Shown piece by piece: positions 945 through 63,760 of a stretch of 64,000 nt of DNA. The stretch is from the NCBI GenBank assembly GCA_976551045.1, contig CDPCPM010000050.1:12152001-12216000 (forward strand), given 5' to 3'. Below the pieces are notes generated by a model, which made no database searches, was not told the origin of the DNA, and saw only the letters and a program-made list of their open reading frames with translations. The stretch comes from Glaucostegus cemiculus. Taxonomy: Eukaryota. Position numbers and translations under genes: made by a program. Positions within the stretch are counted from its first letter, which is position 1, and the number at the start of each line of letters is the position of its first letter.

Positions 945-1170
945 ACAACATACAAAATGCTGGAGGAACTCAGCGGGTCAGGGAGCATCTATGGAGGGAA
1001 ATGGACAATCAATGTTGTGGATCGAGGACTTTCTATTCCTGATGAAGAGTCTCAACCCGAAACATCGACGGTCCATTTCCCTCCATAGACTTTGCCTGAC
1101 CAGCTGAGTTTCTCCAGCAATTTGTGTGTTGCTCTAGGTTTCCAGCATCTGCAGTCTCTCTTGTGTCTCC
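945..1170 (+). mobile_element. Penelope-derived fold-back element with minimal hammerhead core
   Basis: Inverted arms (tgctggaggaactcagc...atggagggaaatggac / gtccatttccctccatag...gctgagtttctccagca) flank CTGATGA-A-GAGTCTCAACCC-GAAA-CATC. Confidence 0.75.
1034..1071 (+). ncRNA. Minimal type I hammerhead ribozyme motif (decayed)
   Basis: Core boxes CTGATGA (1039-1045) and GAAA (1059-1062) are intact and NUH = ATC; stems I and II carry mismatches. Confidence 0.55.
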
Positions 1171-2107
1171 ACATCCTCATGTAGCTCAGTGTTAAATTTC
1201 AACTGTTAAAACTCCTTTGAAGTACCTTAGGATATTTTACTTCATTAAAAGTGCTTGGAAAACGAAAGTTGTTGTTGTTGTTGCAAACCATTTGTTATTT
1301 TTATAATATTCCTTAGATTCATAGCCACTTTCACTGATTACAGCTTTTCACTTCCAGTTCAAATATTCAAACTGATTTAGACTCCTGTGGTAGATTATTA
1401 GTCCACACCTCAGTGCAACTAGCTCAGTAATAAAATCATTGAACTTCCTCGGCTTCAGATCAGTGTAGGAGAGAATGTTTGTGTTCTAAATAAATGAGCA
1501 ATGATGAAATAAGAGACATTCCTCATCTGTATTGATTTTGTGATTAATATTTTTCACTAACTCCAAATGGACTCTCCCCACCTACTCTGTTTGTTCAGTT
1601 AATTATTATATAGGTTCTCGGTGTTGCTCATTAACCTATTTGTAAATAAATCAGTTCAATTTACTTTAACGGGCTGGATCTCCCAACCTGTCACTCACCA
1701 CAATTTCACCAATAGAAAGCACATACAGCTCCACAAACCTACACCAATTGTGCTGAAATAGAACAGAGTGTTGCTGCCCATCTCACTGTTGTGGACATCA
1801 CTGGGATGTACTGAGGACCATGTGACTGATCTTTGCGCATACTGATGTTGTAACGCCCTTCGTTCGACGGATGATTATCATGGGAACATTGGATGACATT
1901 TCTTGGCTTGGCCCTTTTTAAGGGGTGAGAGGTGGTCATGACACCATTTAGACATGTCACTGAATCCATACACAGTGAACATCCCAGTCAGGCAAGAGAT
2001 GCAAGGCACAGCATAGGGATCATGCTTGATAAATGAGAGAAAGGGGGCACTTAGTAAACAAAAATTTAGACCCAGCATTCAGGGTGAAATTTGGTGGTTA
2101 CTAATCA

Positions 2108-2715
2108 CATAACCAAAGAATTAGAAGCAGGAGTAGGTCATTCAGCGCCTCAAGCCTATTTCACCATTCAATAAGATTATTTACCTCAGTACTATCCTCC
2201 TGTACTAAGTCTATATCCCTTGATTCCCTAAATATTCAGACTTCTATTGATTTCTGTCTTGAATTGACTCAGTGACCAAATCTCCACAATCCTCAAGTAA
2301 AGAATTCCAGATATTTAATTTCCTCTGGGTGACCGACTTTCTTCTTTACAGTCCTGACTCTTCAGTTTGAGACTGTAAGCCTTATTCTAGATATTCCAGC
2401 CGGGGAGATATCATCTCTACATCTGCATAAGAATTTTCCATGTTTCAAAGAGATCACCCCTTTTTCTTCGAAGTTGTAGAGAACCTAGGCCAAGTCTGCA
2501 TAATGACATCTCATAAGACAGTGTCTGCATTCCAATGCACTCCCTCTTTCGCAAGTATCCATTCCTTAGGAAGTGAAGTCTGACCTGTGCATAATATTCC
2601 AGTGCAATTTCACCAGGGCTCTGTAGAATTGCATAAAAACACTTTATTCCTGCACTCAAATCCTCTCGTGATATTGTCTAGCTTCCTAATTGCTTGCTAT
2701 AATTGCATGTTAGCT
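2108..2715 (-). mobile_element. CR1 LINE 3' fragment
   Basis: LEYYAQV...RLGL.SL..RRKRGDLFETWKIL; antisense CR1 3' end. Confidence 0.72.
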
Positions 2716-4669: not shown

Positions 4670-4952
4670 CTAGTGTAACAGTTAGTGTAACGTTTTACAG
4701 CACCAGTGACTCGGGTTCAATTCCAGCCACTGTCTGTGAGGAGTTTGTATGTTCTCCCCACGTCTGTGTGGGTTTCCTCCGGGTGCTCCGGTTTCCTCCC
4801 ACATTCCAAAGATGTACGGGTTAGGAAGTTGTGGGCATGTTATGTTGGTGCTGAAAACATGGCGACACATGTGGGCTGCCCCCAGAACACTCTATGGAAA
4901 AAGATGTATTTCATTGTATGTTTTGACATACATGTGACTAATAAAGATATCT
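4670..4952 (+). mobile_element. tRNA-derived V-SINE
   Basis: B box ggttcaattcc, V-SINE core gtttgtatgttctcccc...gggtttcctccgggtgctccggtttcctcccaca, tail gtgactaataaagatatctt. Confidence 0.8.
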
Positions 4953-7059
4953 TGTTCTGCTCTTTTGGAACAGAACATAGCTGTAGATATAATCAGTGAA
5001 CAAAATAACGAATTAATCTGTCAGTATTTTTCTAGTAGTCTGGATATTAATTATTTGCAGTTTTCTCTGTCCCTCTTGACCATTTAATGGACCAGCATAT
5101 TGGGCTGCCATTCCTAAACTCTACAGTGAAAAGCAAATAACTGCCGTTGTTGGCAATCTGGAATTAAAAGAGAAATTGGTGGGTCTCCTCAGCAAGTCAA
5201 GCAGCATTTGGGGAGAGAGAAAAACAGAGCTAACCTTTCGGATTGGTGACTTTTCTTAAGAGCTCTTGTATAAAAGAAAATTGCCCAGAAGAATGAAGTT
5301 TAGCACCACTCTATTCCCCTGCACCTTAATCACCCATCATCAGGAACTATTTCCATAGTTTACTCAGAGACCAGGTTTTACTCCTCTTCCTCCAGGGATC
5401 TCCAATCATTCTGGCTGCCATTCACTGTTCCCTGGAAATGCTGGCCCCCTCCTACCCCAATTTTATCCTCTCTCTTTCCTCTGCCCCATTCTCCCTCCCA
5501 CACCACCATCATGAACTCTAAACTCAATTTCCTGCAATGAATATTTGATATATTCTGCTGCAGCTGCCTGGAACTTACAGATTCTCCCTCAGTCCCCAGC
5601 CATTGCTGAACAATCTTCGCTGGCTCTTTTATTTCAGTGACAGAGCCCACTGGCCCAGCTCCATATTAAGCTCCCAGTTTTAGTTTCTGAGGGGCAAAGT
5701 TTGTTAGAGGCAGTCAAAACTTCCATTATGTAGCCAACTCAAGTGTCCAGCCCACGATCCTCAGCACCAGCCACACTAAATGAACCAAAATGCAAATGCT
5801 CCATTGAGAAATCTGGTATGGGCAGCTGTTGAATGCATGCTAATACTGGGATGGCAAAACTTTGCAGATCTCCCACTGGAGCCCAGAATCAAAGAGGAGT
5901 CCATCTCTCTCCACCACTAAGTGTTGCAGCATGCAGTGATAGGGCAGTTCATTAGGAGGGTTATCAGTGAATTGGGAGCATGCAGTCTAAAGATAACAGA
6001 TGTCATCTGCTGACCCTTGCATTATACATGAATTACTGTACAGGAATTGTACTCCTGGGCTGTTGAGAGCAGTGTTCAGAGGATTTAAGTATACAGCACA
6101 GACCAAATAAAACTGTTGTCTGGGCTGAACACTTAACACCCCCAGTAGACTTTATCCAAGGCTTAGCCACCCCAAGACCTATTCCACACTCCTCCCACAG
6201 TGCCATTGTTTTTGGATATCACTCGCTCCACAGTAAGAATGGATTTGCCACACCTCGAGTATGATCAGATAATCCTGCAGTGCAGTATGAAGGTACCACT
6301 CTCCCACCTAGATCCAGGTTTATCAAGCAAGCCTTTCTGATCAATAATGCTCCAATTTCCATCAAACAGTCTGGATGCTGGATGCACAATCCGATCTACA
6401 GTAACAGACTCCTGCAGAAGGTTGGTATGAAATAAAGACAAAGTTTAGAATCTGGAAGTGTGAGCTGGTGCTTCTGTTAGTAAGATAAGAAGCTTTTCCT
6501 CGTGTCTGGTACACAGCATCCAGGAGTGCTTGAGAGGAAAGTTCTGCAGATTCTTTCTCCTGTCCCTTTTGTATTTCCTGTCTTAAATCAATTTGTAGGA
6601 GTAATACTGATAATAGATGTTAACTTTAGCTTTCTGCTACAGACAAAGTGCTCCTTTTGATGTTAACAGTGACAGTAAGTATAAAAGGACTAAGTGTGGA
6701 ATTATTAATGATCAAAGGTGGTAGGTTTGCTTAAACATTGGAAAGAAATAAAACACCACAACGTTAAAGAACTAAAAGAAAAAAGTTATCTGATCCATCA
6801 TGAGGCATGTGGTGAATGGAGGATTGTGGGAGGTATCAGTCGACTGAGAGCATGCAGTCCAAAGAAATTATATCATCTTCTGACTCTTGCACTATACGTG
6901 AATCAGCTTTCTTTGTTTTGATAGATTCCCATGATGAGTGTTCTGAAGAGGAAACGTTAACAGTGTAGATGAAACAAAGGGGAACTCCAAAGTAGAGACC
7001 AACAGAGCCACTTGCAAACTATCAGCCATAAAACAGAGCATGACTTCGAATAAAATATC

Positions 7060-8010
7060 ATGAATTATGCCTGAACTTCTAATTTAAAAGGGAACATGAC
7101 TTTCTATCAATGTATAAAGTCCAGACCAAGCAGGAAAGGGTTGGCAATTGGGTGAGGATGAACAGAAACACATCTCAAAACAAAAGTAAAAATAGACTGA
7201 AGAGAATTAGAAAAATTGGCTTTGGATGGATAGACCATATTGTCATCAAAACATGTAGAACAGAATATAAAGGGGACAACGTTGCTTCCTGCATTTTCCT
7301 CAGAGTTGTCATGGTCATGTTTATCGTATCTTTTAATGGATGGAATCCATGCCACGATTCAGAGAGCAGCTCCTCAGTCACTGGGAGGAAGTCTGTGGTG
7401 GTAACTTTCCCAGTGTCAGACAGCAGGGAGGCCCCTCTGCAGTTGCTGCCATTCAACCGTTTTTCTTTCTTGAAGATGGGAATGACTGCAATACCTCCAA
7501 AGTCTTCTTGCATGTCTTCCTCTTCCCAAACATCAGAGATGAGACTGTGAATTTGTGTCTGAAGTTCCTCTCCACTAAGATTTACATACTCAGTGGCGAT
7601 AACATCTGCTTCAGAGGCCTTGTTATTTATCAGTTAATACACAGCCTTTACAGCCTCCTGTTGGTCTGGGATGGTGGGAATGGGATGGACCACATGCTCT
7701 CAATCCACTGCTATGGGATGGCATCAAGGATACCCATGTTAGTTGAGGAGCTCTTTAAAGTGCTCCATTCTGCGGGTGCTGATTGTCTCTCTGTCCTTGA
7801 CAAGTTCTCCTTCACTCTTAGCTCTCACCGGGATGCGCCCCTGGTTACTTGAGCTGTGTTTGGAGCAGGATCATCCAACTGGATGTCCACCCGTGACGTG
7901 CCCCAAGCACTGTCCAATGACGAGCCTACAAGCACTTGACTCGGTTTAGCAGGCCGACCCCGAAGTGCACTCCTCACCACTTGGTGATGGTTGACCAGCA
8001 GAGGAAGCCA
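7060..8010 (-). mobile_element. RTE-clade LINE fragment (decayed)
   Basis: AVIPIFKK...NCRGASLLS.TGK...LLSES.HGF. Confidence 0.68.
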
Positions 8011-8071
8011 TGTGACCAACCCTCACTCATGCTGACAACATGTGACCAACCCTCACTCATGCTGACAACAT
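8009..8071. repeat. Perfect 30-bp tandem duplication
   Basis: catgtgaccaaccctcactcatgctgacaa x2. Confidence 0.95.
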
Positions 8072-9439
8072 TACTTCCTTCCTTTGTTTCTTATCTCCCC
8101 AACCCCAAGTGAAAGAGACAGCTGAGGAACATCACTGGGTTTCCACTTCAATCTTCTGAGGGAAGGCAAGAGTTCAACAATATTCCAAATAGTTTTTTTT
8201 AAACTAAGCCCAGACCATTCCTTCATTTAATTGTTTATTCAAAATGCCTCTGCTTTGTTGGCTAGCAGTTTGGACAAACAATAATTTGGGAATGTTCACC
8301 AAATTCCCTTCCCCTTTTGCCTCACCCTCCCCACACTCTAAGTGTCTCAGAATGAATCAGAGGGAATCACCAGCAGCAAGGAGTCAGCTTACTCAGTGGA
8401 GAGTCAGTCAGAAGATGACCATTCTACTCATCTGGACGCGTTCCAGAAACAAAAGGAAGTACCATCAGTTATTAGAGTAACTCGTCCAAGCAAGTAGAAT
8501 TCACAGGTCAGATAATCCGATCCAAAAATTGGATCCACAGGTCAGAATGGACAACCTGACCCCAGGTTTAGACAGCACTAAAGAATCCATGCATGATGTG
8601 ATTATCAAAAAGGTACCCTAGCATCGACTGGCATTTGAAGATGAGAATTCAAAAACACCAACGGAATGAGAACATAAATTTTCAAACACTGGCTTTGCAA
8701 ATCAGCTGTGTCATTGCAGTTAGCAAACGAGTTCCACGCAAAGAGACTGACACTATCAGTGAGAATATAGAAAATGTCCCTCAAAGGGATAGCGGAAAGC
8801 TGACCACGCACAGGAGAGAGGAGAAAAAACATATAACTTAAAGATAATATTTATTTATAGATTATTTTTAACTTTGAAGTTATTTAACTTGCACCAAAAT
8901 TCAAACTCTAAACCACAAATGTGCTAACAAAATACAGTCATGAACAAACTTACTGACACAAACTAACACATACTAACCTACAAAATAACCATCCTTTACT
9001 AAGCACCAAGATTACTAAACAATAAATTAAAATTTTAACAAAATTTTTTTTTTACAAACCTGCAGATGCTGAAAATCTGGAAGTGCTGAAACACTCAGCA
9101 GATTAGGCAGCAATGAAATGTTAACCACAACTTCCCACAGAGCTCTGCAGGCTCAGTTGTGATGTATTTTTTTGAGTTTTCTTCACCCATACTGACTCTT
9201 GCACTGTTTTCTTCAGGCTCACTCTGAGACTGAAGGAGTTCATTGATGACCATATTCAAGAGGAGATTTGAATACAAGCATGAGAATTTAAAATTAAATT
9301 TGTTAACTAGATGGAAAGCCAAATTATTAACAGGGGCGATACGTGAACCTTGAATGACCTCAGGCCTCTTGGAGTGCAGATGATGGGAAGCAGTCCAGGA
9401 GGGTGCTGCATGAGTCAGGTCTGGAGGGGGTAACAGAAA

Positions 9440-10280
9440 CATGGATGAGAGTTTCAACAGAGGGTGAGCTAATGCAAGAACCGCTCAGTCAACACTACAG
9501 AGGAGAACTGTGACAATGAGGAGGATAATAATAGATTGCATGAAGATGTAAACACGCTAGTAGAATAGGAGGATAGTGGCAGGTGAAATTTAATACTGAG
9601 GAATGTGGGGTTACATTTTGGTAGGAAGAAGAGGCAATGTGAACTGGAGGGCACAATTCTAAACGTGGCAACAGAACACAGAGATCCAGAGATACTTGTG
9701 CAAATGTCATTGAAAATGCAGAGCAGGTTGAGAAGGTGACTATATGTGTAGATGGGATCCCAAGTTTTATAAACAGAGGCAGGGAACAGAAAAGCAAGGA
9801 ACCTTATTTAAACCCTGGTTCAGCCACATCTGAAGTCTTGTGTCTAATTCTGAGCACCACACTTTAAAAAGGATGGGAAAACAATGGACAGGGTGCAGAA
9901 GAGTTTTACAAACATGGTTTCAGGGAGAGGGACTTTATTGTATGGATAGACTGGCGGTGCTGGGCTTGTTCTGCTTGGAACTGGGGAAGGTGTGAGGAGG
10001 TATGATAGAGGTAGTTTAACTCATGGCTGTGGACAGGATACAGAGAGAGAAACTGCCCCCATCAGCGGAAGGATCCAAAAACCAGGACCATAAGCTGAAG
10101 GTGATTGGCAAAGGTGCCCAGTAAGTGGTTAGGGTCTGAAGGAATAGAAGTGCAGCAGATTGGTTTGTATCATTGAAAGGGGAGCTGGATAAGTATCAGA
10201 AAGGAAAGGGCTGTGGGGAGAGGACGGAGTAGATACAGAATTCACCATGGACTCCTCAGGACAAATGGCCTCCACTACTA
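9440..10280 (+). mobile_element. CR1 LINE 3' fragment (decayed)
   Basis: W.VKFN..C.V.HFG remnants, RVQK.FT, CR1 3' UTR. Confidence 0.72.
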
Positions 10281-10489
10281 CCTGATATGGAGTCGGAGTT
10301 CAGTTCAGGATCAAACAGAAGATCGAAAATTCCATCTTTACGTCCAATAAAGTTGGAAAAATAAGGAACCATATCATCCTTCTCCAATGCACGGATTATT
10401 TTGAAGGACGCTGTATTTAAATGTAATGAGCAACAGTCTGGTAACTAAGAGCAGTAGGACCCAGAGGAATCCTTTGCAGGAGAGGCTTG

Positions 10490-10820
10490 ACACTGCGCTT
10501 GGATTCCGCATCGCGGGCACGGGTGCGCCAGCTTCGCTCTCGGGGCTTGTGAGTTTCCAAAGCCGTGACTCTGGTGGTCCCCAGGAGTAAATGATGGGAT
10601 CCTCGCCTTCACTGTCTGCCAGGGAAACCCGCAACCTTTCCGACTTCCACCGGCTGTAAGTCCAGGCGCGTGTTTCCAGTTCTCTGGGGAATGTGCTGGA
10701 GTTTCACAGCTCCAGCAGCTCCAGCTGCTCCAGCAGCCCGCGGCACAGCTCCGGGCTCCGGGCTCCCGGCTCCCTGCGAGCCGGTCACCAGCGCCGGCGT
10801 TTGCTTTCCACATCTCGGGG
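10490..10820. promoter_or_regulatory. Small CpG-rich island around TESC-like exon 1
   Basis: Dense CpGs (e.g. ccgcatcgcgggcacgggtgcgcc, gcgccggcg) in an otherwise CpG-poor, AT-rich window. Confidence 0.55.
10594..10655 (+). CDS. TESC: TESC-like exon 1 ([20 protein letters not shown]); apparent +1 frameshift
   Basis: ATGATGGGA start, MGxxxS motif, ends ACCGGCT|GTAAGT (TG-F junction as in the CHP family), in a CpG-rich region. It is 62 nt long, whereas a phase-1 end (61 nt) is needed to join exon 2. Confidence 0.8.
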
Positions 10821-13800
10821 AATTGTTTACATGCAGGGAGACAGTTTGCTTCTCTTCTCTCCCCCCTCTCCCTCTCCTCCTCCCCCCTCTCCCCCTCTCC
10901 CCCCCTCCCTCCCTCCTCCCCTCTCCCCCCTCTCCCCCCCTCCTCCCCTCTCCCCCCTCTCCCCCCCTCCCCCCTCTCCCCCCCCTCCCCCCCTCCCCCC
11001 CTCCCCCCCTCCCCCCCTCTCCCCCTCTCCTCTCCCCCTTCCCCCCCCCTCTCCTCTCCCCCTTCCCCCCCCCCTCCTCTCCCCCTTCCCCCCCCTCTCC
11101 TCTCCCCCTTCCCCCCCCCTCCTCTCCCCCTTCCCCCCTCTCCTCTCCCCCTTCCCCCCTCTCCTCTCCCCCTTCCCCCCCCCTCTCCTCTCCCCCTTCC
11201 CCCCCCCTCTCCTCTCCCCCTTCCCCCCCCCTCTCCTCTCCCCCTTCCCCCCCCTCTCCTCTCCCCCTTCCCCCCCCCTCTCCTCTCCCCCTTCCCCCCC
11301 CTCTCCTCTCCCCCTTCCCCCCCCTCTCCTCTCCCCCTTCCCCCCCCTCTCCTCTCCCCCTTCCCCCCCCCTCTCCTCTCCCCTTCCCCCCCCTCTCCTC
11401 TCCCCCTTCCCCCCCACTCTCCTCTCCCCCTTCCCCCCCCCTCTCCTCTCCCCCTTCCCCCCCCCTCTCCTCTCCCCCTTCCCCCCCCTCTCCTCTCCCC
11501 CTTCCCCCCCCTCTCCTCTCCCCCTTCCCCCCCCCTCTCCTCTCCCCCTTCCCCCCCCTCTCCTCTCCCCCTTCCCCCCCCCTCTCCTCTCCCCCTTCCC
11601 CCCCCCTCTCCTCTCCCCCTTCCCCCCCCTCTCCTCTCCCCCTTCCCCCCCCTCTCCTCTCCCCCTTCCCCCCCCTCTCCTCTCCCCCTTCCCCCCCCCT
11701 CTCCTCTCCCCCTTCCCCCCCCCTCTCCTCTCCCCCTTCCCCCCCCCTCTCCTCTCCCCCTTCCCCCCCTCTCCTCTCCCCCTTCCCCCCCCCTCTCCTC
11801 TCCCCCTTCCCCCCCCTCTCCTCTCCCCCTTCCCCCCCCTCTCCTCTCCCCCTTCCCCCCCCCTCTCCTCTCCCCCTTCCCCCCCCCTCTCCTCTCCCCT
11901 TCCCCCCCCCTCTCCTCTCCCCTTCCCCCCCCCTCTCCTCTCCCCCGTGTTTGGAAGGGGCTTTCAAACATGCGAGGTATTCTCTGCTACGTCCCCCACT
12001 TGATGGTTACTGACACCCAAGGCTCGCTGGTGAGCGAGCACAGGGGGCTTCACAAGTGGGCAGAGACCGGAGCTCCCCACACACAGTTCCCACGTTACCG
12101 GCCTGTGACCGGGGAAGCTGGCTGAATTCCCGCCATCAATGAAGAGGAATTCCCCACAGCTACTGTGCTCAGCTGAATGCATACAACAACCTGAGCCCAC
12201 TGCTCTGTTAGGTTCACTCGCTATTCAAACTCTCACAGCTGCTTCTAATTGGAACACCAACCTGCCCTTTAAATGAAATGCTGTATTTGTTAAAACAGAA
12301 TATACTGGAAATACTTAGATCAGGCAAGGTCCGCAGAGGGCAGAGGGAGCAACAGGATCAACCTTTCATTCGATGATTTTATCAGCCTCTCAGCTCCTGG
12401 GGTGGCTGCAGGACCCCATTCCCCAGGGGTTTTGTTTGCAATGCAACATTAATTGCAGATCATTCCTTGAAATATGATTCTAGATAATTCTGCGGGTGCT
12501 AGTTTTGTTTTCTGCACTTGAACAAACTTCTGGGATTGTCTCCTGTAAAACCAGCATGTATAATCCAGTGAAGCTGTCTGCTCCAAGTATTTTGCTGGGA
12601 TGACTGTTGGAGGAAGTTCCCCCCCTTCCCCCCCTTCCCCCCCTTCCCCCCCCCCCTTCCCTGCCAATTCCACCCATCCCAGGTACTGCCCTGGAGGATC
12701 AGTTTGTCTCCCTCTGAGCTGCAGGCCGGGGCTTGGAGTAGTGGTCTTAGCCACATCCAGATCTTCCAGGGCTGAGGTGTGTGTACTGATGACGCTGATG
12801 TGCTGGGTTTGTGTTATAGCTGAATAGTCTTAAGACCAGAGTCCATGGGACACCAGACCAGCTGATTATTGACAGCAAATCCCACTGGGTGAAGATGGGA
12901 CGCAGTCCCTCCTCTGTGAGCTGGCCATCTGCTGTCGTATCTCACTTGGGCAGCAATACCAATGTCGGCTTCTGAGTTGCTGGGCTACGACGGCAGAGTG
13001 ACGCTCAGCTCTGTCGTTGTTGGGGCTGTCCCTGAGTTTCCTGACATTTCCAGGTCCTGAATTTCATATTGTGGACAAGCGTTGTCTGTGCACCAATTTC
13101 CTTTATCAACAGCTGCCACAGGGACTTCCATTGGTCCCCCCTCCATGAGCTTCCTTTCATCCCTCCCACCCTCAATCCTCACGTCCCTGAATCTCCTTCC
13201 TTTCCTGATCCCTCTTCCTTCCCCCAACCTCTTCCCTCTTCACGCCCTCCCCCTCCCTCTCCCTTGCATGCTGCTGGTTGGCCCTTTCCTTCCCCCCCCC
13301 CCACACAGGGCAAGCCACCCCCCCTGCCTTTTCTCTGGTTCACCAGTCTCCCCCATCAGCCCTTCCCCCCCCCCACCCCACCCAACACCTCCTCATACCC
13401 TCCCTTGCTCGGCAGCCCAATGCTAAACCCAGTGTGCTGCCACTGAGCAGTGTTCCCTCGGGAATGGGCCAGGGCTGCGGTGTGTGGGGCAGCTGATGCC
13501 AGCAGCTTCAAGGCTGGTGGAGGACAGAGTTAGACACAAGGAGGATGGGCCTCCCGAACACTTGTGGGGAGGGCTATCTCGCTCCCCCCCCTTCCTTCTG
13601 CATTCCTTCCCCGTGTGGAGTGAGACAAGGTGTGGAACAAGAGTTTTCCCAGTGTGGCTCACCATATCCACACGGAGCAGGGATCAGGGTTCCTGGGATT
13701 CCCCAGGGATTGGAGAGGCTGGGTCTGGTTTTTTTAGAATAGAGAAGGTTAAGAGAGGGTGTGCTTGAAGCGTATAAAATTATGAGGGGGGTAGATAGTT

Positions 13801-16800
13801 TCCTGCAGTCAATCTATCAGAAGCAGATAAAACTAGAGGGCAGAGATTTAGAAGGGATCTGAGCAGGGCCTTCTTCACCCAGAGAGTGGTGAGTACCTGG
13901 AATGCACTGCCTGAGTGGTGGGAGCAGAGTCGCTGACAGCATTTAAGAAGTGTCTGGATGAGCACTTGAATCACCTGTGGGCCAAGTGCTGGGAAATGGG
14001 ATTTTCCAGATGGGTCCCCACTGGTCAGTGTGGATGTGGTGAGCCACACGGCCTGTTTCCGTGCTGTATGACCCTATGACTCTGTTCTACACCCTGCCTT
14101 ACTCCACTCTCCCAGAGGGAGGTGGCCCTTCGACCACTGACACCGAGCAACACTAACAGCTCCTGCACCCAAAATGTATTGTCTTGGCCCAGTCAGTGAG
14201 AGACATAGCAGTGGCAGTAGTTTCCCACCATCATAACTCTCACCCAGTACTAGGTACTAACAAAAATAACAGCACCATTATAAACTTTGTCCTTCATCTG
14301 AATGCAACAAGCAAATGGTTTTACTTTTTTGGAATTATGCTTTCTTTGTCCATATTCAAGTGAATAATAAAATTAATACATATTACCTAAAAATCTCCCT
14401 AAGTACAGTAGCTGCTCCAAGCCAATTTTAAATCTCATTATTTAACTGCTGACATACAAATGGCAACCTTGCCTTCTTAATTAAAGCCATATTACAGCAA
14501 CTCAACAAATAACCATCATTTAGAAGAGAAAGCCCTCTCTGTAATTAACAAGATAATTATCTATAGACCTCTGAGTCAAACACAGGGTGTTGCTAGCTTT
14601 AGACTTCAGACTGATACAAAAACAGATTGTACAAAAAAAAATTAGGAACTGTAGAATCATCTAGCTTTCATTTTGTTTTTTGTGAACTAAAGCTCTGAAG
14701 TTATCCAGGAGTGTATTGCTGTGTGAAAATTTAACATAGCCCATTGGAAGTGTTTTCTTAGCTGTTTAAACTGACATTTAACATTGTAGATTGAGATTAA
14801 CAAGTGTTGTGGGTCTGTAATTACCCATTTGGTTCTTTGGGTTCTACCATGCTGGGCATTAAGAATGGGTTAGTGTCTCTGTGGCTATGAGGTCTCATTT
14901 GTAGAATTTCATTCTTCCCAGTTTCTTCAGAGCAAATTGAAATCCTCCACAGAAGATTCTTACACCTAACTGATGGGAAGCCTACAATGACGTAAATATA
15001 TTATTTTGGAATATTTTCATCCTAAAACAACCTTTGTATTAGAAATTTGCCCCTGAATGGAGTAGCTACACGTTTACCCAAATACCTATTCACTTTACGT
15101 TTACAGCAGAAGTAGCTTTGATAACGTTCCCGATTTGGACAATAATCCCATTAAGTCAAGAATCGTCAATGCATTTTTTGATGGGAGGTAAGTATTCAAC
15201 TTTTTCAAATAATATTTTTTATATATTGCTGCACAATGCAACTTGGTGGGTTGGCCCAATTTGCTTTCATTAGGTTACAAATCTAACTCAGATTAATGGA
15301 ATGGAAGTCTCCCTAACCTCCTAGGTACTTTTGAGCAAACTCTTAATTGCTTTGAAAATGTGTGAGTACACAGAATAAAATTGGAGATCTAATAGAGACG
15401 ACAGAAGTTGCTGGTATACAACATGGAAGCAGCACAGAACACAACAGGATGTGGTTTTCGATCTAGGAATTGAAAATGAGATTAATGGGTGCTTAAGTGG
15501 GGAAAATAATGCATTTCCTCAAACAAAAGTCACACAATGGCAAAATGAGATCATAAAATTAAAAATACTTTTAGTCTTTCGATGTGACAATTTCACCCTA
15601 ATTTCTATGTGCATTTTCCTAGAAACCTGGGCTTACAATCAAATGGAAAAGTTGATGAAATCACATTTGAAAACTTCCTGACCACTTTATCATTTTTCCA
15701 ACACATGGATGATAACCATCCAAAGGAGGACTTGGAACACTGCAAAACTGAAAAATTGAAATGTAAGTCTGAACACTTCATATTCTTTGTCAGAATCAGA
15801 ATCAGAATCAGTTTTATTGTCACAACCATATACATACATGGTACGCATAGGAGCGAGATACCGTCCTCCACAGGAACACGTCTCATAGAAAAGAATAACA
15901 TAACAACCAACAGAGAGACACATACACACTTGGCAGAATACACAGTACAAAACATTACTCATTAGTTCTTACATAAATAGATCTTAAAGTGAACGGGCTG
16001 GTGTCAGGCATTTAAAGTGCTGGTGCATTTCTGTGCACCTAGCATCTCCTAGTGTTAACAAAGGAAGATGGAGGGATGAGAGAGTTTGCAGTTCTTATGG
16101 CTTGCGGAAAGAAGCTATTGTTCAGCCTGGACGTTCTTGCCCTGATACATTTAAGCCTCCTCCCTGATGGCAAAATTGTGAAGAGGTGGTGGGAGGGGTG
16201 AGAGGGGTCGGCCATTATGCTTTTTGTCTTCCTCACACAACGGTCTTTGTATATGTCTGCGAGGGATGGAAGCGAGACACCTATGATCCACTCCGCAGCC
16301 TTAACTATCTTCTGGAGGGACTTCCGCCCAGCAGCTGAGCAGCTTCCAAACCAAACAGAGATACATTGAGTTAGGATGCTCTCAATGGTCCCCCTGTAGA
16401 AGGATTTCATGACTGAGGGGTGTGGGTACGCTTTCCTCAGTCTCCGCAGGAAGTAGAGGCGTTTCTGAGCCTTCTTCGTGAGGGCCGTAATGTTAGTGGA
16501 CCAGGTCAGGTCGTCGGTGATGTGCACCCCCAGGAACTTGGTGCTGCGTACTTGTTCCACAGCAGACCCGTTGATGGTCAGCGGAGCGTGCACACGATGA
16601 CCCCTCCTAAAATCCACTATCATCTCCTTGGTTTTATCCACGTTCAAGGAGAGGTTGTTGTCATGGCACCACACAGCTAGTTGGTTCACCTCCTCTCTAT
16701 AGTCCGACTCATCGTCATTCGTAACAAGACCCACCACTGTCGTGTCGTGTCACTTTGTGCACCAGTAATTACGAATTATAAATTTTATGCAGTCATAAAG

Positions 16801-37584: not shown

Positions 37585-38289
37585 TAAAAGAATCAGAACA
37601 GGCCATAAAAAGGAAAAAATAATTTGTCTTTGGTGAATGGAATGATGCAGTACAATTCCAAAGTAACTGTACTCATCTTAACATTTATAACTTAGTTTTT
37701 GTACTTTTATCCTCAAAGTTGTTTTATTTTCCAGAATTTAGAAATAATGCAGCTCCATGTTGAATCAGATTTCAGAGCTCTTTTGGGCACGTTGTTCTTT
37801 CCTCTCGCTCAGTAAACGATGCAGTAGAAGCTGCACAATTTTAATTAGTTCACATGCATTTTCCAGGGTTCTAATTGGATGGGTCCAATCTAAAGTTACT
37901 TGGTTCTTTGTTTGCTTGCACACAGTTCCTAAAGGAATTTAGTGACTTTCCCTAGCCTCCCAACTATTTTCCAACATAATTCATAGCCCACTGCTCAGTT
38001 TAATGTGCAGATGAAACATTGCAGCAAGCTAATAAACTAATCCCCTAACACTCAGTCATTCAAAAACAAAAAAAACATTCCTTTCAACCAAATCTGGGCA
38101 TTACTGAAAATTAATTTTAACATGGCTGAAATTAACTTGTTTAAATCAAGCTGTATGGGAACTGGTGAACTACCAACATGCCAATTAAACCTACTCATTT
38201 CTTGTACAATAACAAAGGTTTTGTTGGGCCTGCCCTTTCCTATCAGGTTCAGTTATCACCTCCAAGAACCAAATCTGAACTATGCTCTA

Positions 38290-38490
38290 GCAACACACAC
38301 AAAGTGCTGGAGGAACTCAGCAGGTCAGGCGGCATCTATGGAAGGAAATAAACAATCGATATTTTGGGAAACCCAAAATGTCAACTATTTATTTGCCTCC
38401 ACAGATGCTGCCTGACCTGCTGAGTTCCTCCAGCACTGTGTGTGTGTGTAGCTGCAGATTCAAGCATCTGCAGAATCTTATGTCTCTGGT
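38290..38490. mobile_element. Penelope-derived palindromic element (~80-bp arms, AAA loop)
   Basis: acacacacaaagtgctggaggaactcagcaggtcaggc...ttttggg-AAA-cccaaaa...gcctgacctgctgagttcctccagcactgtgtgtgt. Confidence 0.8.
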
Positions 38491-39773: not shown

Positions 39774-39779
39774 TTTATT
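39774..39779 (-). terminator. Candidate FBXO21-like poly(A) signal
   Basis: AATAAA on the minus strand ~340 nt past the stop; another at 39857-39862. Confidence 0.4.
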
Positions 39780-55200: not shown

Positions 55201-56799
55201 CTGGAGGAGATGAAAGAAACTCCTTCAATTTTTCCATTATATTCTGTTGACGTAGAAAACACAATATCTTCCGAGAATAATATTTCCACGTCAGGTACTT
55301 CCTGCATTATTAAATGGTATTATTTGTAAGCATCCAACACTTCTTTATCTTTTAACATGCAAGAAGGAACTTAGCTTTCTAGACTAAAGTACAATTTAAA
55401 ATTTCTTGTTTTTTAAAATAAGTAATATTATTTACGCACCTTCCATCCATGTTTAGGATGGATAACAATTCATCTTCAATAAAATGAAAAGGACCACCTA
55501 AAGCCTCAATGTCTTTAAAGCCATCAACAGGAACCTGCCAACAACAGATTTGGTTACAACCAATGCCATATGAGCGCCATCTGCTGGCAATTACTTTTTA
55601 AAATTGTTCAACAATTATAAACTTAAACATAGTAATTGTTTAATTAATTTTGTTCTGTACCCATTCACAGATGAGCACCATTTTGCAGACAACATGGTTA
55701 TTGGTAGCATGTGTTCTTGATGCATATTTTCAGCAAAATAGTTTCCTCTAGATAAACTATATTGCTCAGTTAAAACACACAAAAAATGCTGGAGGAACTC
55801 AGCAGGTCAGGCAGCACCTATGGAGGGAAATGAACAGTCGATGCTTCGGCACAAGACCCTTCCAGCAGCTGCAGTTTTTCTTCTGTCTCCGTATTGCTTA
55901 GTTACATGTTCAGTTTATTTTCTGTTTACATAACCATTACCTTCTTTCTATAAACAGATAATTTATAATTGAAAATGGCCTCAACCCTAGAGAAAGCAAT
56001 GTATTAGGGTAGACACTGATGTAAGCACTTCCAATTATTCCAAAACATTTTGCTACATGTTTAATAAGATTTAAATTTTAATTTTCACAATACCTATCAG
56101 ATGTATCATCATGCAAGGCACCACTGTCCCATGAAACTACTTAAGAATGTTTCAACCTTGTTGAAATGCTTTTCCGTTACCTTAGAAAGCTGGTGTCATG
56201 AACTTTCCTGTTCCAAGTAATTAAAATGGTGATGTTGAATCGTGGAATTGACTGATTTCTATCAAGACTAAAATGAATATTTACAATTCTGTAACCATAT
56301 TATAATTTGTAACACAATTACAAGATGGATTTGCATGTAATAAGGAGAGTTACGTCTGAATAATGCTTTGGGAACATGCATCACAAGAGCTATAGCAGCA
56401 GTTTACTTGAGATGTTAAAAATCACCATCAACAAAAGAATCCGACAGCAGATTTTCCTAGCTCAAGGTATGTAGCAACTGCAATCAGTAACATTCAGGCT
56501 ATTTTGCTATTACATTCAAGTGCAGGAATTGTAGGACAATAATACTATATTCAACAACATGATATACAGCACAACCTTTCACAGATTAACACACTGTTAC
56601 ATGCAAGGCTCAGATTCTATGTTCGATGGTACAAGCTTATTCATTCACCATTACAATTCTAACCTCTTTTGTGAAAAATCGCTTTGAAAAGGAGTCCACA
56701 ATTTTCCGCAATTTCCAGCCAATAGTATGTCGAGTTCTGTATTCTTCCCACCAGTTATGATTTCCTGTCGTACTGTAGTACTTTGTTAGTCTTGGCCAC
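40118..56799 (-). CDS. FBXO21: F-box only protein 21-like, coding exons 2-12 (5'-partial; transglutaminase-like core and C-terminal YccV/hemimethylated-DNA-binding-like domain)
   Basis: Eleven GT-AG exons with consistent phases (1600 nt in total). They encode LTWKYY, IDQYCNPL, GIPI..LEPV.FP.HFLLRWCQ, YIDAF, QARLYFHLGI, GLIMKHKRYGY.CVIYGWDP, QPFYNVLV.DGSCRYAAQENL and VGRYFSEF.GTHY, as in FBXO21. The F-box exon 1 was not found in the window. Confidence 0.94.
41106..41263 (-). CDS. FBXO21: FBXO21-like exon 11 (YGYDCVIYGWDP...QPFYNVLVQDGSCRYAAQ), YccV-like domain
   Basis: aatttag| acceptor, |gtaagt donor, 158 nt. Confidence 0.95.
41590..42100 (-). mobile_element. CR1 LINE 3' fragment
   Basis: EAVQKGFTRL...L.LYPLEFRRM. 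Confidence 0.72.
42330..44590 (+). mobile_element. Scattered RTE LINE fragments
   Basis: CDTDHALV at ~42480; PESQSGFRADKTTINMI at ~44085. Confidence 0.55.
43684..43770. repeat. 43/44-bp tandem duplication
   Basis: tcaagtagtactaaaacttggtttag(g)agtctctttgtgcaaca x2. Confidence 0.93.
48205..48395 (-). CDS. FBXO21: FBXO21-like exon 10 (VLDILQHIQAVDP...FSVGLIMKHKR)
   Basis: tacatag| acceptor, |gtagtt donor, 191 nt. Confidence 0.94.
49288..49420 (-). CDS. FBXO21: FBXO21-like exon 9 (EDSDQSYQLLRNALDLYL...QARLYFHLGINPEK)
   Basis: tttacag| acceptor, |gtaatt donor, 133 nt. Confidence 0.93.
49730..51005. repeat. 128-bp direct repeat pair (49730-49857 and 50878-51005)
   Basis: Ungapped alignment by eye, 8 mismatches in 128 bp. 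Confidence 0.92.
50509..50685 (-). CDS. FBXO21: FBXO21-like exon 8 (DYIYIDAFDNGK...RMVTNLFHLGKR)
   Basis: ttcttag| acceptor, |gtaaga donor, 177 nt. Confidence 0.93.
51120..53540 (+). mobile_element. Decayed Rex1/Babar-type LINE ORF2 (APE end, RT, 3' tail)
   Basis: [62 protein letters not shown], tail cagtacatatgacaataa; many frameshifts. Confidence 0.85.
52083..52214 (+). mobile_element. CR1 3' end nested in the Rex1 LINE
   Basis: gggccgaagggcctgttctgtgctgtattgttctatgttct tail interrupts the CL.D|Y..VAL coding stretch and is flanked by an atga duplication. Confidence 0.7.
53823..53959 (-). CDS. FBXO21: FBXO21-like exon 7 (VLGQKKGIPITLCVIY...LEPVSFPGHFLLRWCQ)
   Basis: catcaag| acceptor, |gtaata donor, 137 nt. 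Confidence 0.93.
54084..54214 (-). CDS. FBXO21: FBXO21-like exon 6 (QVLDIMNCVLYKQLKFKGNEDDYYNPMNSYIHQ)
   Basis: atttcag| acceptor, |gtctat donor, 131 nt. Confidence 0.92.
54720..54866 (-). CDS. FBXO21: FBXO21-like exon 5 (GVVLIDQYCNPLADTSL...HPSITAER)
   Basis: ttatcag| acceptor, |gtagat donor, 147 nt. Confidence 0.92.
55180..55301 (-). CDS. FBXO21: FBXO21-like exon 4 (KYLTWKYYSRKILCFLRQQ...)
   Basis: aatgcag| acceptor, |gtaaat donor, 122 nt. Confidence 0.92.
55440..55534 (-). CDS. FBXO21: FBXO21-like exon 3 (VPVDGFKDIEALGGPFHFIEDELLSILNMDGR)
   Basis: ttggcag| acceptor, |gtgcgt donor, 95 nt. Confidence 0.91.
55572..55590 (-). promoter_or_regulatory. Putative CTCF binding site
   Basis: Minus strand TTGCCAGCAGATGGCGCTC closely matches the CTCF core CCASYAGRKGGCRS. 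Confidence 0.6.
56664..56799 (-). CDS. FBXO21: FBXO21-like exon 2 (WPRLTKYYS...NWWEEYR...IVDSFSKRFFTKE)
   Basis: tttgcag| acceptor, |gttaga donor, 136 nt. Confidence 0.9.
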
Positions 56800-59559
56800 C
56801 TGCAAATTTAGAAGCATCATATATTCATATTAATACATTTTTGGGGGCTATGACTCATCCTTGGAGGCCAATCCATCCAATGCTCCTGCATTGCTGTAAC
56901 TTTAAGTGCAGCATTATGCATTTTCCAAGAGGCAACTGACCTCCATTCTAGCAGCACAATGTGAATTCAGTGGAGAGGAGGAAAATAAGACTGGTTGCAT
57001 GGCTTCAATATTTCACCACATCAAACTCAATTTCTGAGAAAGGGAAGACCTAATAGAAAAGGCAAAAAGAACTTGCATTTCCATGTCTTTCACAACCACA
57101 GTATGCTGTAAATCACTTTACAACCACAAAGTACTTTTGGTGCAGTTACTGTTAAAATGCAAACAACACTATAATCAATTTGTACACAATATCTCACAAA
57201 CAACAATATTCAATAGATAATTAGTTTTAACAATGTTGTCAGGAGAGATAAGTATTCAATGGACACCGAGAACTAGCCTTGTTGTGCTGGGGGATTCTTT
57301 TATATTGACCTTGAAGGAAAAAGAAGAGTACCCTCCAGAAACTGCTCTGAAGTATTGCACATGCAATACATTTAAGTTTCTAAGTTCAACTTGAAAAGAC
57401 AATCATCGAGTGCTGCCATTGAGCTACAGCTGACTGAACTGACCAAAAAGCACACACCCTTGTTTTGAAGCTATTGCGATAAATGTGCTCACGTCCAAGT
57501 GAAATATTCAGCTACTCCTGACCCCACTATCAACTGTATTTTGTTCATCATCCAAGTCAATTCCTTCTTCCTGTCTTGGTCTTTCTCTGACACTTGAGGC
57601 CTTGCCTCTGCATTGCTGTGAACATCCCTGGGATATGTGCAGAAGCTGCCCAGCATAATTATCTCCTTCCTGGTGGAGGGCGTTGCCTAACTCTTGAACT
57701 AAATCAACAAATTAGAACATGGCTGATGATGAGTAACCTGTGCCAGGAATCTATCTCCTGTATTTAATGTGAATACAGATCATCCATGAAGGCGATAATC
57801 CTTAGTGATTGCTCGAAATGTTGAGCAATTCAGTACCAATGATACCAGTTTGGTAATTTCACTCAGCAATTGGCATCAGGAACAGGAATGTGCTGTTCCA
57901 GTGGGTGTGGTTATCTAAAGTTGTGATGCAGGCAGTGGCATAAGTGAAGTGGCCCTTGTAGTGAAAGGAATCGGCATCTCATTTTGGCATGTAAATACTC
58001 GAGGATAATGCAGACAAAATATGGTTTCACCTGCCAATGACATTATGTGCATATTTTCGTTTTGCCACTCCAGTTACAGGAAACTGACAAGTAGAAAAAA
58101 AGTGAGTAAAATTATCTACCATTAGTCCCCACACTATTACTATAGCATTATTTTTAAAAATCATCTTTAGGTAATGCTGAGAATACAATGTGTAATGTGA
58201 AACACAGAGTTAAAAATGCAGACAAGACTGAACAGTTACAAGGGAAGAAGAGACAATTTAAAAGTTCAGACAAGTGGACTGCTTTTGAAGAACACAGAAA
58301 TTATAATGACTGTATTGCTAAACACATTCTTCTCCCACATGGATGACAAACAGTTAACACAGTTTGATTCAAAATATTAAATCCCGTTTCTCTTTCCAAA
58401 GATACTACCACATCTGCTGAGCATTTCCAGAAATTTCCATTATATTTTAACATGCGTGATTATGCTTAGCTATGTCACCAGAGGGCAAGACAAGATTTAA
58501 AAGGGACTGGCGCTTTAAAAAGTGAACAACAAAAATCCCTGGGAAATGGAGTCACAGACAAACTTCCTCCAATGCTAAAATCTCTTATGAAACTGTATGA
58601 AAATTCTTTGTATTGAACCCAAGTCTGGGCAATGGCTAAGGATTTAAAGAATCACTGCCTCTTCAAAACGTACATTTAATGGAAAATTAAAAGCATGGGT
58701 TGGAACCTTAAATTACTTGCTCAAGAAAAAAAACAGAATGTGGTTATAAAAGAGAAAAACAAAAAAAAAACTAAACTGCTGCACTTGATTATGAAAGCAT
58801 GCTGGGAAGCTTAACTGAGTTTGAAAGTTATCACCATTTATTGCCTGCTGTGTTAGCCTTGGTAAAGCATTTTGATGTAATTTGAAGGACAGCAAAGACA
58901 GCAGTTTGTTTGATCCATGGAGAGAAAACTACAGGCAGTCTATTTTTCTATAAAGATAGATACAATATTAACCAGTGACAGTAAAGAAGCAGCACATCAA
59001 AGCAGATGTAAACAATGAATGAATGCCTCGAATATTCCAGAATTCATGATTTGACAATTGTTAGCTGAATAGCACTGCTATTAAGCATTGCTTTCTGTGG
59101 AAACAGTGTGTTTTAATCTCAATAAAATCAGCTATTTACAGGTTCAACTCTTAATTGACCTTTAAAGTAGTAACAAAAAGTTGTTCAAAATGTTAGTACA
59201 GAGCTATTTAAGATAATGTATTTTGTGAGAAGGACCCCCAAGCCCAACTCCACTTCCTCTTTGTGCAAGCTCTTAAGTTTGGCTCAGTCTACATTTGCCA
59301 ATCTTGACGTGCAAATGTCAAGCATACATTGGCCCCAGTTGAGGCTTCCAGTGGCCTCAAACCATAACTAGGGCTGTAGTCAAGCTTTTAAAATAGCAAA
59401 AATGGTGGTGGGGGGGAAAATTGATCTAAAAGACAACAAGATCAAAGCAACAGAGTAAAGAGGGAATTTTGAAACTGACAAACAGAATAAGGGGAGGGAA
59501 AGAGTTTAACAGTAAAAGTGCAAAGAAAAACACTGGTAATGGAAACTTATTGACAAACA

Positions 59560-61600: not shown

Positions 61601-62394
61601 TCAGCAAGCAAAGTCAAATCAAGGAAAAATGATAGAAATTTAAAATTAATGTCATATCTGAATGCACAGCACATTCATAACAAAACTCTGTGTCTTAATG
61701 ATTCTCTGATTCTGTAAAATAGAACTCACAGCACAAACAGAGATGAATTTGACCCAAGCCTATCAGAATCTGTATGCAAGGTGACCAAGGTTATGAATTA
61801 TATTTCCCAGAAAACCTGACTTTTAGGATGGACAAATAAAAGACAGTATCCTCAATAATAGAGGATGCCATAAAGTAGAGTGGAATGATCTTGGCTCAAA
61901 ACTAAAGGATGTACGCTCTGGATGGAGATAAGGAACAAGACAAAAATCAATGTTTGGTATTGCTTTCATTTGATCAGATCGTTAGTTATTAATAGAACAT
62001 CCGCATCACTGAGGAGACCAGCAGTTATTGCCCATCCCTAAAAAACCATACGAAAGTTGCTGCCTTGAAGTACTATTGCCCTGTTGAAAACATCTCCACA
62101 GGGTTATTATGAATGGATGTTACAGAATTTAATCCTTTTAGTGAAGGAGGAACAATAGGTTTTCACATTAAGATGGTGAAACTTGTAGGGAAAGCTGCAA
62201 TAGGTGCTTGTTGACATTGTCCTTCACGCTGCAGGTTACAGAGTTATCCTGAATGGTGTCATTGGACCTGCACAGGAAGAGTATTCCATCACATACCTGA
62301 CTCATGCCATATAAATGGTAGCAAAGTATAGTGAAGAGAAGAAAGGTGTCACCCACCACAGGATAGCCATCTTCTGACTCACTTGTGAAGTCAA

Positions 62395-63760
62395 AGTCAC
62401 AGAACACAGAGCTGTGCGGCTTAGAAACGGCCCCCTCGTCCATGCCAAACATGATGCTCATCTACAGTAATCCCAAAGAAGGGCCCTGACCCAAACGTTG
62501 ACCACCTGCTTTTCTCCACGGATGCTGCCTGGCCTGAGATCCCCCAGCATCATCGTGTTTTTCATTTACACTAACCATAGTGCCCGCATTAGGTCCATAT
62601 CCCTCTACTTTGTTCCTGTCCTGTTTAAATGCCTTTTAAATGCTGTCCCTACCACCTCCTCTAACAGCCTGTTCCACGTAACCACCAGCCTCTGTGTGGA
62701 AAAACTTGCCCCTCAGATCTCCTTTAACTTCCTCCTCTTTCACTTTAAACATGCTTTCCAGTTCTAGACTCCCGTATCCTTGGAAAAAGACCAATTATCT
62801 AACCTACCTATAGCCCTTATAGGTTTATAAACCTCAAGACCCTCAAAACCCCTCAGCCTCCTACACTCCAGTAAGAACAAACCCAGCCTACCCAATCGCT
62901 CCATGTAACGAAAGCCCTCCATTCCAGGCCACATCCTAGTGAATCTCTTCTGTACCCTTTTGAATACTACCACATCCTTCCTGTAGTGTGGCGACCAGAA
63001 CTGTACGCAATATTCCAAGTGCACAACAAATGTTTTGTACAGTTGCAACAAGACATTCCAACTTTTATACTCAGTGCCTTGGCCTGTTAAGACAAGCATG
63101 CCAAATGCCTTCTTCACTACCCTATCCACCAGTGTTGCCATTCAGGGAACCACGTACTTGGACCTCAAGGTCTCTTTTAGAGGTTTTTAGACACACGAGT
63201 ATGGAGGGATATGGAGGATACACAGGAGGAGGACATATTGTATAAATTAGCCTCAAGATTGGCACAACATTGTAGGCCGAATGGACTGTCCAGTGCTGGA
63301 CTGTTCTATGTCTCTCTGTATCAGCACTCCTAAGGTCCCAGCCATTTGCTGTATATGTCCTACAAGCATTTGATGTCCCAAAATGTACTATCTAACACTG
63401 TCTGAATTAAATTCCATATGCCATCACTCCACCCAATTTACCATCTGACCCATGTCCCTCTGTATCTTTAAATAACCTTCATGGTCTCAGACTACCAATT
63501 TTTCATGTCAGACCCCCTACATTCTAATCCAAGTCATTTGTATATGACAAGGAACAAAAGTCACAGCACCGATCCCTACAGTACACCTCTGGTTACAAAC
63601 TTCCAGTCAGAAAAGCAACCCTCCACCACTACCCTCTGCCTCCTATCACCAAGCCAGTTTTGCATTCAGTTTAACAGCATGCCACAGATCCCTTGTGCTT
63701 TAACCTTCTGAATCAGCATAATCCATCAAATCTCATCAAAAGATTTATGTGGTTCTGGTC
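62395..63760 (-). mobile_element. CR1 LINE RT/3' fragment with two nested insertions
   Basis: ORF 62764-63141 VVKKAFGML...HLEYCVQFWSPHYRKD..RVQKRFTRM; a Penelope tail at ~62475-62566 and a plus-strand CR1 tail at ~63178-63310 interrupt it. Confidence 0.85.

Follow-up and report, generated by a model that had tools for sequence, protein, structure and literature searches.

Hammerhead-bearing ends of a Penelope-like retrotransposon in Glaucostegus cemiculus, with a hotspot of 5′ ends just before the ribozyme motif

A 64,000-nucleotide (nt) stretch of DNA from Glaucostegus cemiculus (assembly GCA_976551045.1, contig CDPCPM010000050.1, positions 12,152,001 to 12,216,000), hereafter the window, is strewn with copies of a short repeat that carries a minimal hammerhead motif. 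These repeats are almost certainly the ends, or pseudo-long terminal repeats (pLTRs), of a Penelope-type element. It is likely, moreover, that those of the window are pLTR pieces of a Neptune-type Penelope-like retrotransposon of the endonuclease-bearing (EN+) kind, which arose as truncations and as run-off pieces copied from uncut RNA. The motif and its pLTR setting are already published, and the ribozyme is an expected Penelope feature; the new points are a hotspot of 5′ ends before the ribozyme, the near-absence of copies that start at its cut site, and a subfamily whose core has C in position 9 (C9).

The link to Penelope comes from a coding sequence that has the repeat on both of its sides. 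Decayed frames for the thumb of a reverse transcriptase (RT) and for a GIY-YIG endonuclease (EN) lie upstream of the ribozyme at 2 of the first 30 ribozyme loci. A protein search of the genome with one decayed frame as query returned 53,435 candidates, of which 121 were scored, and at 24 of the 30 best open reading frame (ORF) loci the motif follows on the same strand, 150–700 nt after the ORF (23 of 29 without the query's own locus). Similarly, a search with the N-terminal segment gave 63 matches, 12 of which were taken for inspection; in 7 of these 12 a ribozyme unit or its tail stands directly before the ORF in the same orientation, with the ATG about 40 nt past the tail, and the locus L281 is a partial tandem. 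The unit is thereby laid out as ribozyme motif, about 100 nt, tail, ATG (about 140 nt downstream of the predicted cut site), an ORF of RT, linker and GIY-YIG, a pyrimidine-rich 3′ untranslated region (UTR), and a second motif with its tail. This layout is the pLTR-ORF-pLTR of Penelope-like elements. At locus L066 a 525-amino-acid (aa) open frame unites the RT motifs, the Cys linker and GIY-YIG. The closest named proteins are from shark and ray, at 55–67% identity, and the relatives P0001 and P0007 match RVT_1 and GIY-YIG in Pfam; the first 12 genome frames gave a single sub-threshold GIY-YIG match there, all of the decayed frames falling below the cut-offs. Both features by which Neptune elements are recognized, the linker (CX2-5CxxC) and CCHH in the EN, are present. 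Joining the RT to the EN, this linker reads C-x4-C-x2-C in L075, L077, P0001 and P0007 and is degenerate in L066 and L078. A Penelope origin had been proposed in a first-pass annotation of the window, and it is borne out by the ORF linkage on both sides, the RT/GIY-YIG frame and the shark and ray relatives.

Some further coding copies deserve mention in their own right. The read-through C-terminus of the zebra shark protein P0005 resembles the translated ribozyme region, an indirect hint of the motif at the equivalent place in a shark. The ray gene models P0002, P0006, P0042 and P0075, named as kinase, chitinase-domain, nicotinamide riboside kinase and mucin isoforms, hold long pieces of the Penelope ORF, by either mis-annotation or exon capture. 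At least five near-identical ORF copies are clustered at G000:C12:37.47–37.81 Mb (L073, L074); L073 and L074 are 98% identical over 5.2 kb, without a downstream ribozyme. Young subfamily B ribozymes at L006, L008 and L010–L013 (contigs C3 and C4) lie within a longer common unit, with homology 700–1,000 nt beyond the tail and, for L012 and L013, 98% identity across 3 kb. The longer unit is possibly a composite repeat or a segmental duplication.

Within the window, arm-by-arm alignment to four subfamily references identified 23 arms at 17 loci as copies of one repeat (Table 1). An iterated nhmmer profile gave 21 matches, and none at E<0.1 across 10 shuffled windows. All 13 places that had been named before carry the repeat, on the strands given, by both alignment and profile, but the list had overlooked 9056–9112 (minus), 31781–31868 (plus), 47790–47846 (plus) and 58372–58453 (plus). 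Six of the loci, read before as single elements, are head-to-head pairs (944–1171, 26013–26211, 28315–28475, 31949–32679, 38282–38486 and 55774–55890). Nor are the copies of the window short stand-alone elements, as had been supposed, because three loci retain remnants of the ORF end upstream, at 34428–34950 (minus), at about 26648–26698 (plus) and, as read by eye, at about 32250–32330 (plus). No head-to-tail arrays were seen within the window, where copies are dispersed or head-to-head; a genome-wide tandem search was not made. Decay by CpG transitions, noted in the first-pass annotation, is evident in the aligned copies, whose mutations concentrate at CpG sites. The ribozyme anatomy ascribed to the better-preserved copies holds for the family consensus, but an intact ribozyme is found in none of the 23 arms. 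Both core boxes survive in one copy only, at 1039–1062, where the ACGT palindrome and one stem II pair are lost, and the first core box is absent from the pair at 38282–38486 and from the copy at 1–120. The ribozyme copies of the window are dead.

The anatomy of the motif was taken from the genome. Subfamilies A, B and C came from clustering on the downstream sequence alone, D emerged from the core, and the core was tallied in copies not selected on the ribozyme. The boxes CUGANGA and GAAA, with U16.1 and H17, are the majority bases in A, B and C. The consensus has a stem I of 3–5 base pairs (bp), a stem II of 4–5 bp, no stem III and palindromic 15.2/16.2, and the minimum-free-energy (MFE) fold of one real subfamily A copy is the hammerhead fold. 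An extra A follows position 9 in 109 of 113 A copies, 59 of 61 B copies and 30 of 34 C copies; the pair 10.1–11.1 is G-C in A and B and mostly G-U or A-U in C. Position 7, loop II and position 17 vary between subfamilies, and the core bases are kept. Between subfamilies the stems show one compensatory change: the inner pair of stem I, 2.1–1.1, which A and B have as C-G, is U-A in C (123 CG, 21 TA, 24 CA, 14 TG; p=5e-7 over copies, which amount to one evolutionary event). Fully intact motifs number 12 of 113 in A, 2 of 61 in B and 0 of 34 in C. At about −3 kcal/mol the duplex of the palindrome is weak, and in the dimers predicted it is stem II that the two molecules exchange. Judged by its sequence, the consensus of the family represents a minimal type I hammerhead, as had been suggested before: core, extra A, palindrome, G10.1–C11.1 and pLTR location fit the published minimal hammerhead ribozyme (min-HHR), and the four min-HHR traits given in PMC4209133 are all present in the A and B consensus.

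Hammerhead models in Rfam presumably require stem III. A scan with Hammerhead_1 (RF00163), which had been put forward as a check, did not detect the motif at the gathering threshold; the window, 8 young loci and 91 nt taken from an intact copy all gave no match on it. A weak Hammerhead_1 match at L007:2853–2896 (minus; 22 bits against a cut-off of 34, E 0.4) lies off the repeat, has no first core box and is probably due to chance. Matches to Rfam miRNA families in the window were set aside, being sub-threshold and falling on the head-to-head pair at 38.3 kb.

Subfamily D departs from the others in having C at core position 9, followed by A. This form has 1,711 exact matches in the genome (control 0), was found in 10 of 15 unselected D copies, and occurs, as such or decayed, in three copies of the window (28373–28475, 31949–32037 and 32546–32679). 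The C9 subfamily would be either a tolerated core variant, in which C is bulged and the next A serves as A9, or a ribozyme-dead lineage that spread. In its section on core variants, the text of PMC3088659 names no C9 change.

Genome-wide pattern counts are of exact matches in the 2.85-Gb genome and hence lower bounds. The exact core pattern (CTGAnGA, stem II, GAAA, CGT), that is, the core of the consensus derived previously, has 2,118 matches with a control of 0. The exact downstream anchors of subfamilies A and B occur 4,514 and 1,216 times, and a 16-base ribozyme word 12,121 times (the sum of three pattern counts). With anchors and words in the thousands, the very high copy number claimed for the family is well founded. 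Extrapolation from the 17 loci in 64 kb suggests several hundred thousand such ends in the genome, a rough figure from a single window.

The ends of the copies tell how they were made. With the predicted cut as origin, ends were scored in 90 copies of subfamily A that had been picked by the exact downstream anchor alone (the first 30 and 60 of the other 70 listed, of 4,514). The 3′ ends are bimodal, 33 of the 90 at +60–80, 50 at +95 or beyond, and 7 elsewhere, with peaks at about +64–74 and +98–108; the gap of 33–35 nt between the two classes is the Penelope tail. The 5′ ends spread continuously from +5 to beyond −485 nt, and 14 of the 90 copies extend to where the reference stops, inside the ORF. 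Of the 76 copies truncated within the reference, 29 are joined to an inverted partner. The tail is in exactly one arm in 19 of these 29 rows and in both arms in 2 rows (one insertion), 8 being partial or unclear. Most genomic copies are thus 5′-truncated, about 4 in 10 with an inverted second piece at the 5′ junction. No diagnostic base separates short from long copies at p<0.01 (22 against 112 in subfamily A, 25 against 44 in B). Since the short copies have no private bases and their 5′ ends are continuous, they are truncated products of the same coding masters. An independent family resembling short interspersed nuclear elements (SINEs) would have a fixed 5′ end and diagnostic mutations of its own; what was found is continuous ends, running into the ORF, with one hotspot, and the description of the family as mostly non-autonomous is, in that sense, not supported.

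The hotspot lies just upstream of the ribozyme core. Twelve of the 90 anchored A copies end at −28 to −33, or 3.0% per base, against 0.7% at +5 to −27 and 0.5% at −34 to −60 (Fisher p=7e-5, for an interval chosen after the data had been seen). Independent sets agree, with 5′ ends at −28 to −35 in 13 of 62 copies of subfamily B, 5 of 32 of C and 3 of 20 of D. Genome-wide break counts were run afterwards as a test, with whole totals and with the share of true breaks counted by eye in the first 100 rows of each. Among the 12,121 copies of the 16-base word, 1,553 differ at −32, about 70 in 100 rows being true breaks, and another 1,317 differ at −33, with breaks in about 65 of 100; of the 9,251 left over, about 12 in 100 have a break somewhere in the following 14 bases, which for about 9 of the 12 falls within the first two. 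Breaks accordingly make up about 9% at −31, about 8% at −32 and about 0.25% per base at −35 to −47, and about a fifth to a quarter of copies have a nearly identical 5′ end. The hotspot word, pyrimidine-CAGT-pyrimidine, is initiator-like. Measured from the initiator A, the upstream 6-mer richest in A and T begins at −31 in subfamily A (55 copies), −31 in B (10), −30 in C (20) and −31 in D (8), and this TATA-like word is retained together with the initiator in any copy that reaches −63. Of 7 strand-switch joints shown in public reads, 6 map to −20 to −32. Separately, the tail start, at +70 to +74 from the cut, reads in all four consensuses as a pyrimidine tract followed by YAG, a splice-acceptor-like site upstream of the ATG and the second of its kind on the element.

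No excess of 5′ ends is found at the predicted cut site, in the genome-wide counts or in the 90 anchored copies, 6 of which end at −3 to +2. At the cut site 237 of 8,681 copies differ, with breaks in about 20 of 100 rows, or about 0.5% (about 47 of 8,681). Copies run across the cut site and their ends are not enriched at it, so that the templates were uncut, or religated. RNA reads were taken from three raw runs that carry the label of a related species (match unverified, 85% likeness) and come from fragmented libraries, with mapping family-wide; each run gave 5,154–19,069 mapped reads, on both strands. First mates on the plus strand of the locus exceed the others about 2–4:1 over the 3′ UTR and about 1:1 over the ORF end. 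They represent sense RNA of the element only if the library was stranded in the usual way, and the excess over the 3′ UTR may come from few host transcripts.

A pathway can be drawn from these ends. The transcript would start 4 nt before the ribozyme core and so carry both priming sites twice. Reverse transcription would begin on uncut RNA at two places inside it, +70 and +103 relative to the predicted cut. With the 3′ copy of these sites primed, 5′ truncations of any length would result, and with the 5′ copy primed a run-off, most likely at the TATA/initiator start, which would yield the common pieces of 100–135 nt. Priming on both target strands would produce head-to-head pairs with one tail. 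Stem III would form only as a dimer, or with the help of protein, and the ribozyme is probably slow and dispensable for making a copy. The promoter/run-off step appears mildly favoured, its promoter being read from sequence only. That in shark and ray Neptune elements the transcript starts at the TATA/initiator 4 nt before the hammerhead core, and that about a fifth of copies are complete run-off cDNAs made on uncut RNA from the internal priming site up to that capped end, is proposed tentatively, and we are slightly more doubtful than convinced of it.

Several points weigh against this account. The base next to the −32 breaks is G in 29, A in 27 and T in 9 of 65 (by eye), with no clear untemplated cap G, and two copies with target duplications abut the initiator A with no extra base. 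Read starts and ends pile up nowhere on the element, cut site included, in the fragmented RNA-seq from the related source. An intact full-length element was not found among 30 + 18 + 12 ORF loci. The assignment to a Neptune-type, EN+ Penelope-like family, with at least four subfamilies, would follow from the linker motif rather than from a tree. Pairing and covariation in 49 decayed copies are no better than in shuffles, 56–324 of 500 of which reach the observed values. In addition, the hotspot also reads as a 3′ splice site, with a pyrimidine tract and CAG in all subfamilies, and in subfamily A 7 upstream nt pair with the first core box to form, in the MFE fold, a hairpin with its loop at about −30. 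The pile-up could accordingly mark a stop or fold-back of the RT at that hairpin, or splicing, rather than the start of transcription, and the intron of Drosophila Penelope ends at the 5′ end of helix I (PMC4209133). This explanation is a possible one that must be taken seriously, though we doubt it. In B, C and D, where the MFE fold is not this hairpin, the pile-up occurs all the same. What lies upstream of the breaks is target DNA or an inverted partner, and no common upstream exon was seen for copies that break at −30. Nor does the site appear among the 15 splice joints shown of 145 in the reads.

Alternatively, efficient cleavage of dimers in vivo could release unit RNA that is ligated to circles and copied by rolling-circle reverse transcription, the model of PMC4209133. 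Conservation of the core beside a variable position 7, loop II and position 17 would agree with such cleavage, as would the switch from C-G to U-A in stem I of subfamily C, albeit a single event, and a religated circle would also yield copies spanning the cut site. A circle would, however, have no 5′ end at −32; ends are not enriched at the cut site in genomic copies or in reads, the C9 subfamily was amplified to at least 1,711 copies, and the anole element inserts in vitro without cleavage (PMC11167929). We regard this route as unlikely. Still somewhat less probable is an independent SINE- or retrozyme-like non-autonomous family, with its promoter kept in truncated copies and moved in trans by Penelope protein. 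The near-uniform 5′ end of about a fifth to a quarter of copies and the promoter-like words kept in copies reaching −63 would suit it, and Penelope-derived retrozymes have been reported in vertebrates, one chondrichthyan included (10.64898/2026.07.22.740005). Copies that start at −32, however, have no TATA-like word and would be dead ends, short and long copies of A and B share their bases, the other 5′ ends run on into the ORF, and the window has no head-to-tail arrays. Finally, the likeness to a hammerhead could be an accident of a palindrome-rich retroelement end. The silence of the Rfam models and covariation at the level of shuffles would be expected in that case; the agreement of 11 core positions, the extra A, G10.1–C11.1, the palindromic 15.2/16.2 and the pLTR location with the min-HHR makes it very improbable.

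Cleavage as a dimer is known from other Penelope hammerheads, and Lunse et al. reportedly described cleavage of dimers and Penelope-associated hammerhead variants. No paper was found on the family itself, on its hotspot of 5′ ends or on the C9 core; Lunse et al., Repbase/Dfam and preprint supplements may cover shark and ray copies or core variants. The role of the hammerhead in Penelope elements is an open question (PMC8557442), for which the genome offers a large in vivo test set, with a 5′ hotspot, no hotspot at the cut site, and a core variant in thousands of copies. If the promoter/run-off step is true, thousands of insertions record Penelope priming near the 5′ end of the RNA, and ribozyme cleavage lies off the copying path. 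The family also bears on repeat annotation in cartilaginous fishes, where pieces of the ORF have already found their way into gene models of sharks and rays.

Table 1. Repeat arms and Penelope remnants in the window (positions in nt from its first letter).
Feature	Position	Strand	Remarks
Subfamily A end piece	1–120	+	91% identity to subfamily A; first core box deleted; clipped by window start
Subfamily B inverted arm, without tail	944–1033	−	alignment
Subfamily B arm with tail	1029–1171	+	best-kept ribozyme of the window, about 1034–1071: both core boxes present, but breaks in the palindrome and in one pair of stem II
Subfamily C arm with tail, core decayed	5131–5280	−	alignment
Subfamily C fragment, downstream part only	9056–9112	−	nhmmer profile and alignment
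Subfamily C head-to-head pair	26013–26211	both	26114–26013 minus, with ribozyme remnant; 26125–26211 plus
Subfamily C copy	26560–27052	+	ORF-end remnant at about 26600–26700 (tblastn), 3′ UTR, A of the initiator-like word at 26924, remnant of the ribozyme from 26928 on, tail
Subfamily D head-to-head pair	28315–28475	both	plus arm begins at about −34, C9-type core; tail on minus arm
Subfamily C arm	31781–31868	+	nhmmer profile and alignment
Minus arm of one larger head-to-head insertion (position of the whole insertion)	31949–32679	−	C9-type core, ends near 31949
Plus arm of the same insertion (position of the whole insertion)	31949–32679	+	ORF-end remnant at about 32250–32330 (read by eye), 3′ UTR, ribozyme remnant, to 32679
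Subfamily C arm with tail	32682–32774	+	begins right after ribozyme
Subfamily C arm, core decayed	33949–34110	−	alignment
Subfamily C arm	34296–34415	−	directly downstream of ORF remnant 34428–34950
Remnant of a broken Penelope ORF (RT-EN linker, GIY-YIG endonuclease; stops, deletions)	34428–34950	−	tblastn E 6e-19 to 8e-19 with P0001/P0002
Subfamily B head-to-head pair	38282–38486	both	arms begin inside or after stem II; tail on one arm
Subfamily C fragment	47790–47846	+	nhmmer profile and alignment
Subfamily B minus arm starting at −33, fused to plus-strand tail piece 55860–55890	55774–55890	both	alignment
Subfamily C fragment	58372–58453	+	nhmmer profile and alignment
Subfamily A arm, no tail, core damaged	62460–62568	+	92% identity; starts near −38

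Other repeats share the window. A second dispersed short repeat, 82–86% alike between copies, lies at 4681–4948, 23012–23294 and 19384–19443, and presumably resembles a shark SINE. A 236-aa frame at 16042–16749 (minus), with matches to an RT C-terminal domain and ALKBH8_N, is a remnant of a long interspersed nuclear element (LINE), and related repeats are found at 17239–17530 and 62643–62953. A long C/T-rich, low-complexity tandem array with periods of 8–13 nt occupies 10777–12000.

The nearest precedent is the min-HHR in the pLTRs of metazoan Penelope-like elements, published in 2014 (Cervera and De la Pena, PMC4209133) and reviewed in PMC6765202. Shared with it are the type I core without stem III, the extra base 9/10.1, G10.1–C11.1, palindromic 15.2/16.2, the pLTR location, and the thousands of mostly solo or opposite-strand copies per genome from truncated elements. 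The hosts that it reports include fishes, coelacanth, frog and reptiles, and the part of its supplement searched names no shark, skate or chimaera. Here, in contrast, stem II has 4–5 bp and the counts are larger, and the C9 core subfamily is unmentioned in the available text of that paper. As to promoters, a putative TATA and initiator were described in the pLTR of rotifer Penelope from sequence motifs, without a genomic 5′-end pile-up (PMC3846280), and Drosophila Penelope has a TATA-less internal promoter (PMC2377424). The Neptune EN+ elements (PMC8557442, PMC3846280) have in common with the present family a C-terminal GIY-YIG, CCHH, the C-x4-C-x2-C linker, partial tandems, an inverted 5′ copy and an optional tail of 30–40 bp; Nematis also has the Cys linker. 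For the Anolis carolinensis element PAc, work in vitro (Frangieh et al. 2024, PMC11167929) linked the tail to a pair of internal sites at which the RT starts. The two start sites that bound the tail, the cutting and extension of both strands, the hammerhead near the ORF start, the use of uncut RNA as template and the lack of RNA-seq ends at the cut site are all akin to what is seen or proposed here. PAc, however, is a member of Penelope/Poseidon whose ORF begins within the ribozyme, whereas here the ATG lies about 140 nt past the cut and the protein has a Cys linker. The non-LTR retrozymes (bioRxiv 10.64898/2026.07.22.740005) likewise carry a type I hammerhead in non-coding repeats derived from pLTRs, including those of the one chondrichthyan. 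They are head-to-tail tandem units, whereas those described here lie dispersed, singly or head-to-head, and pass by degrees into copies that carry the ORF.

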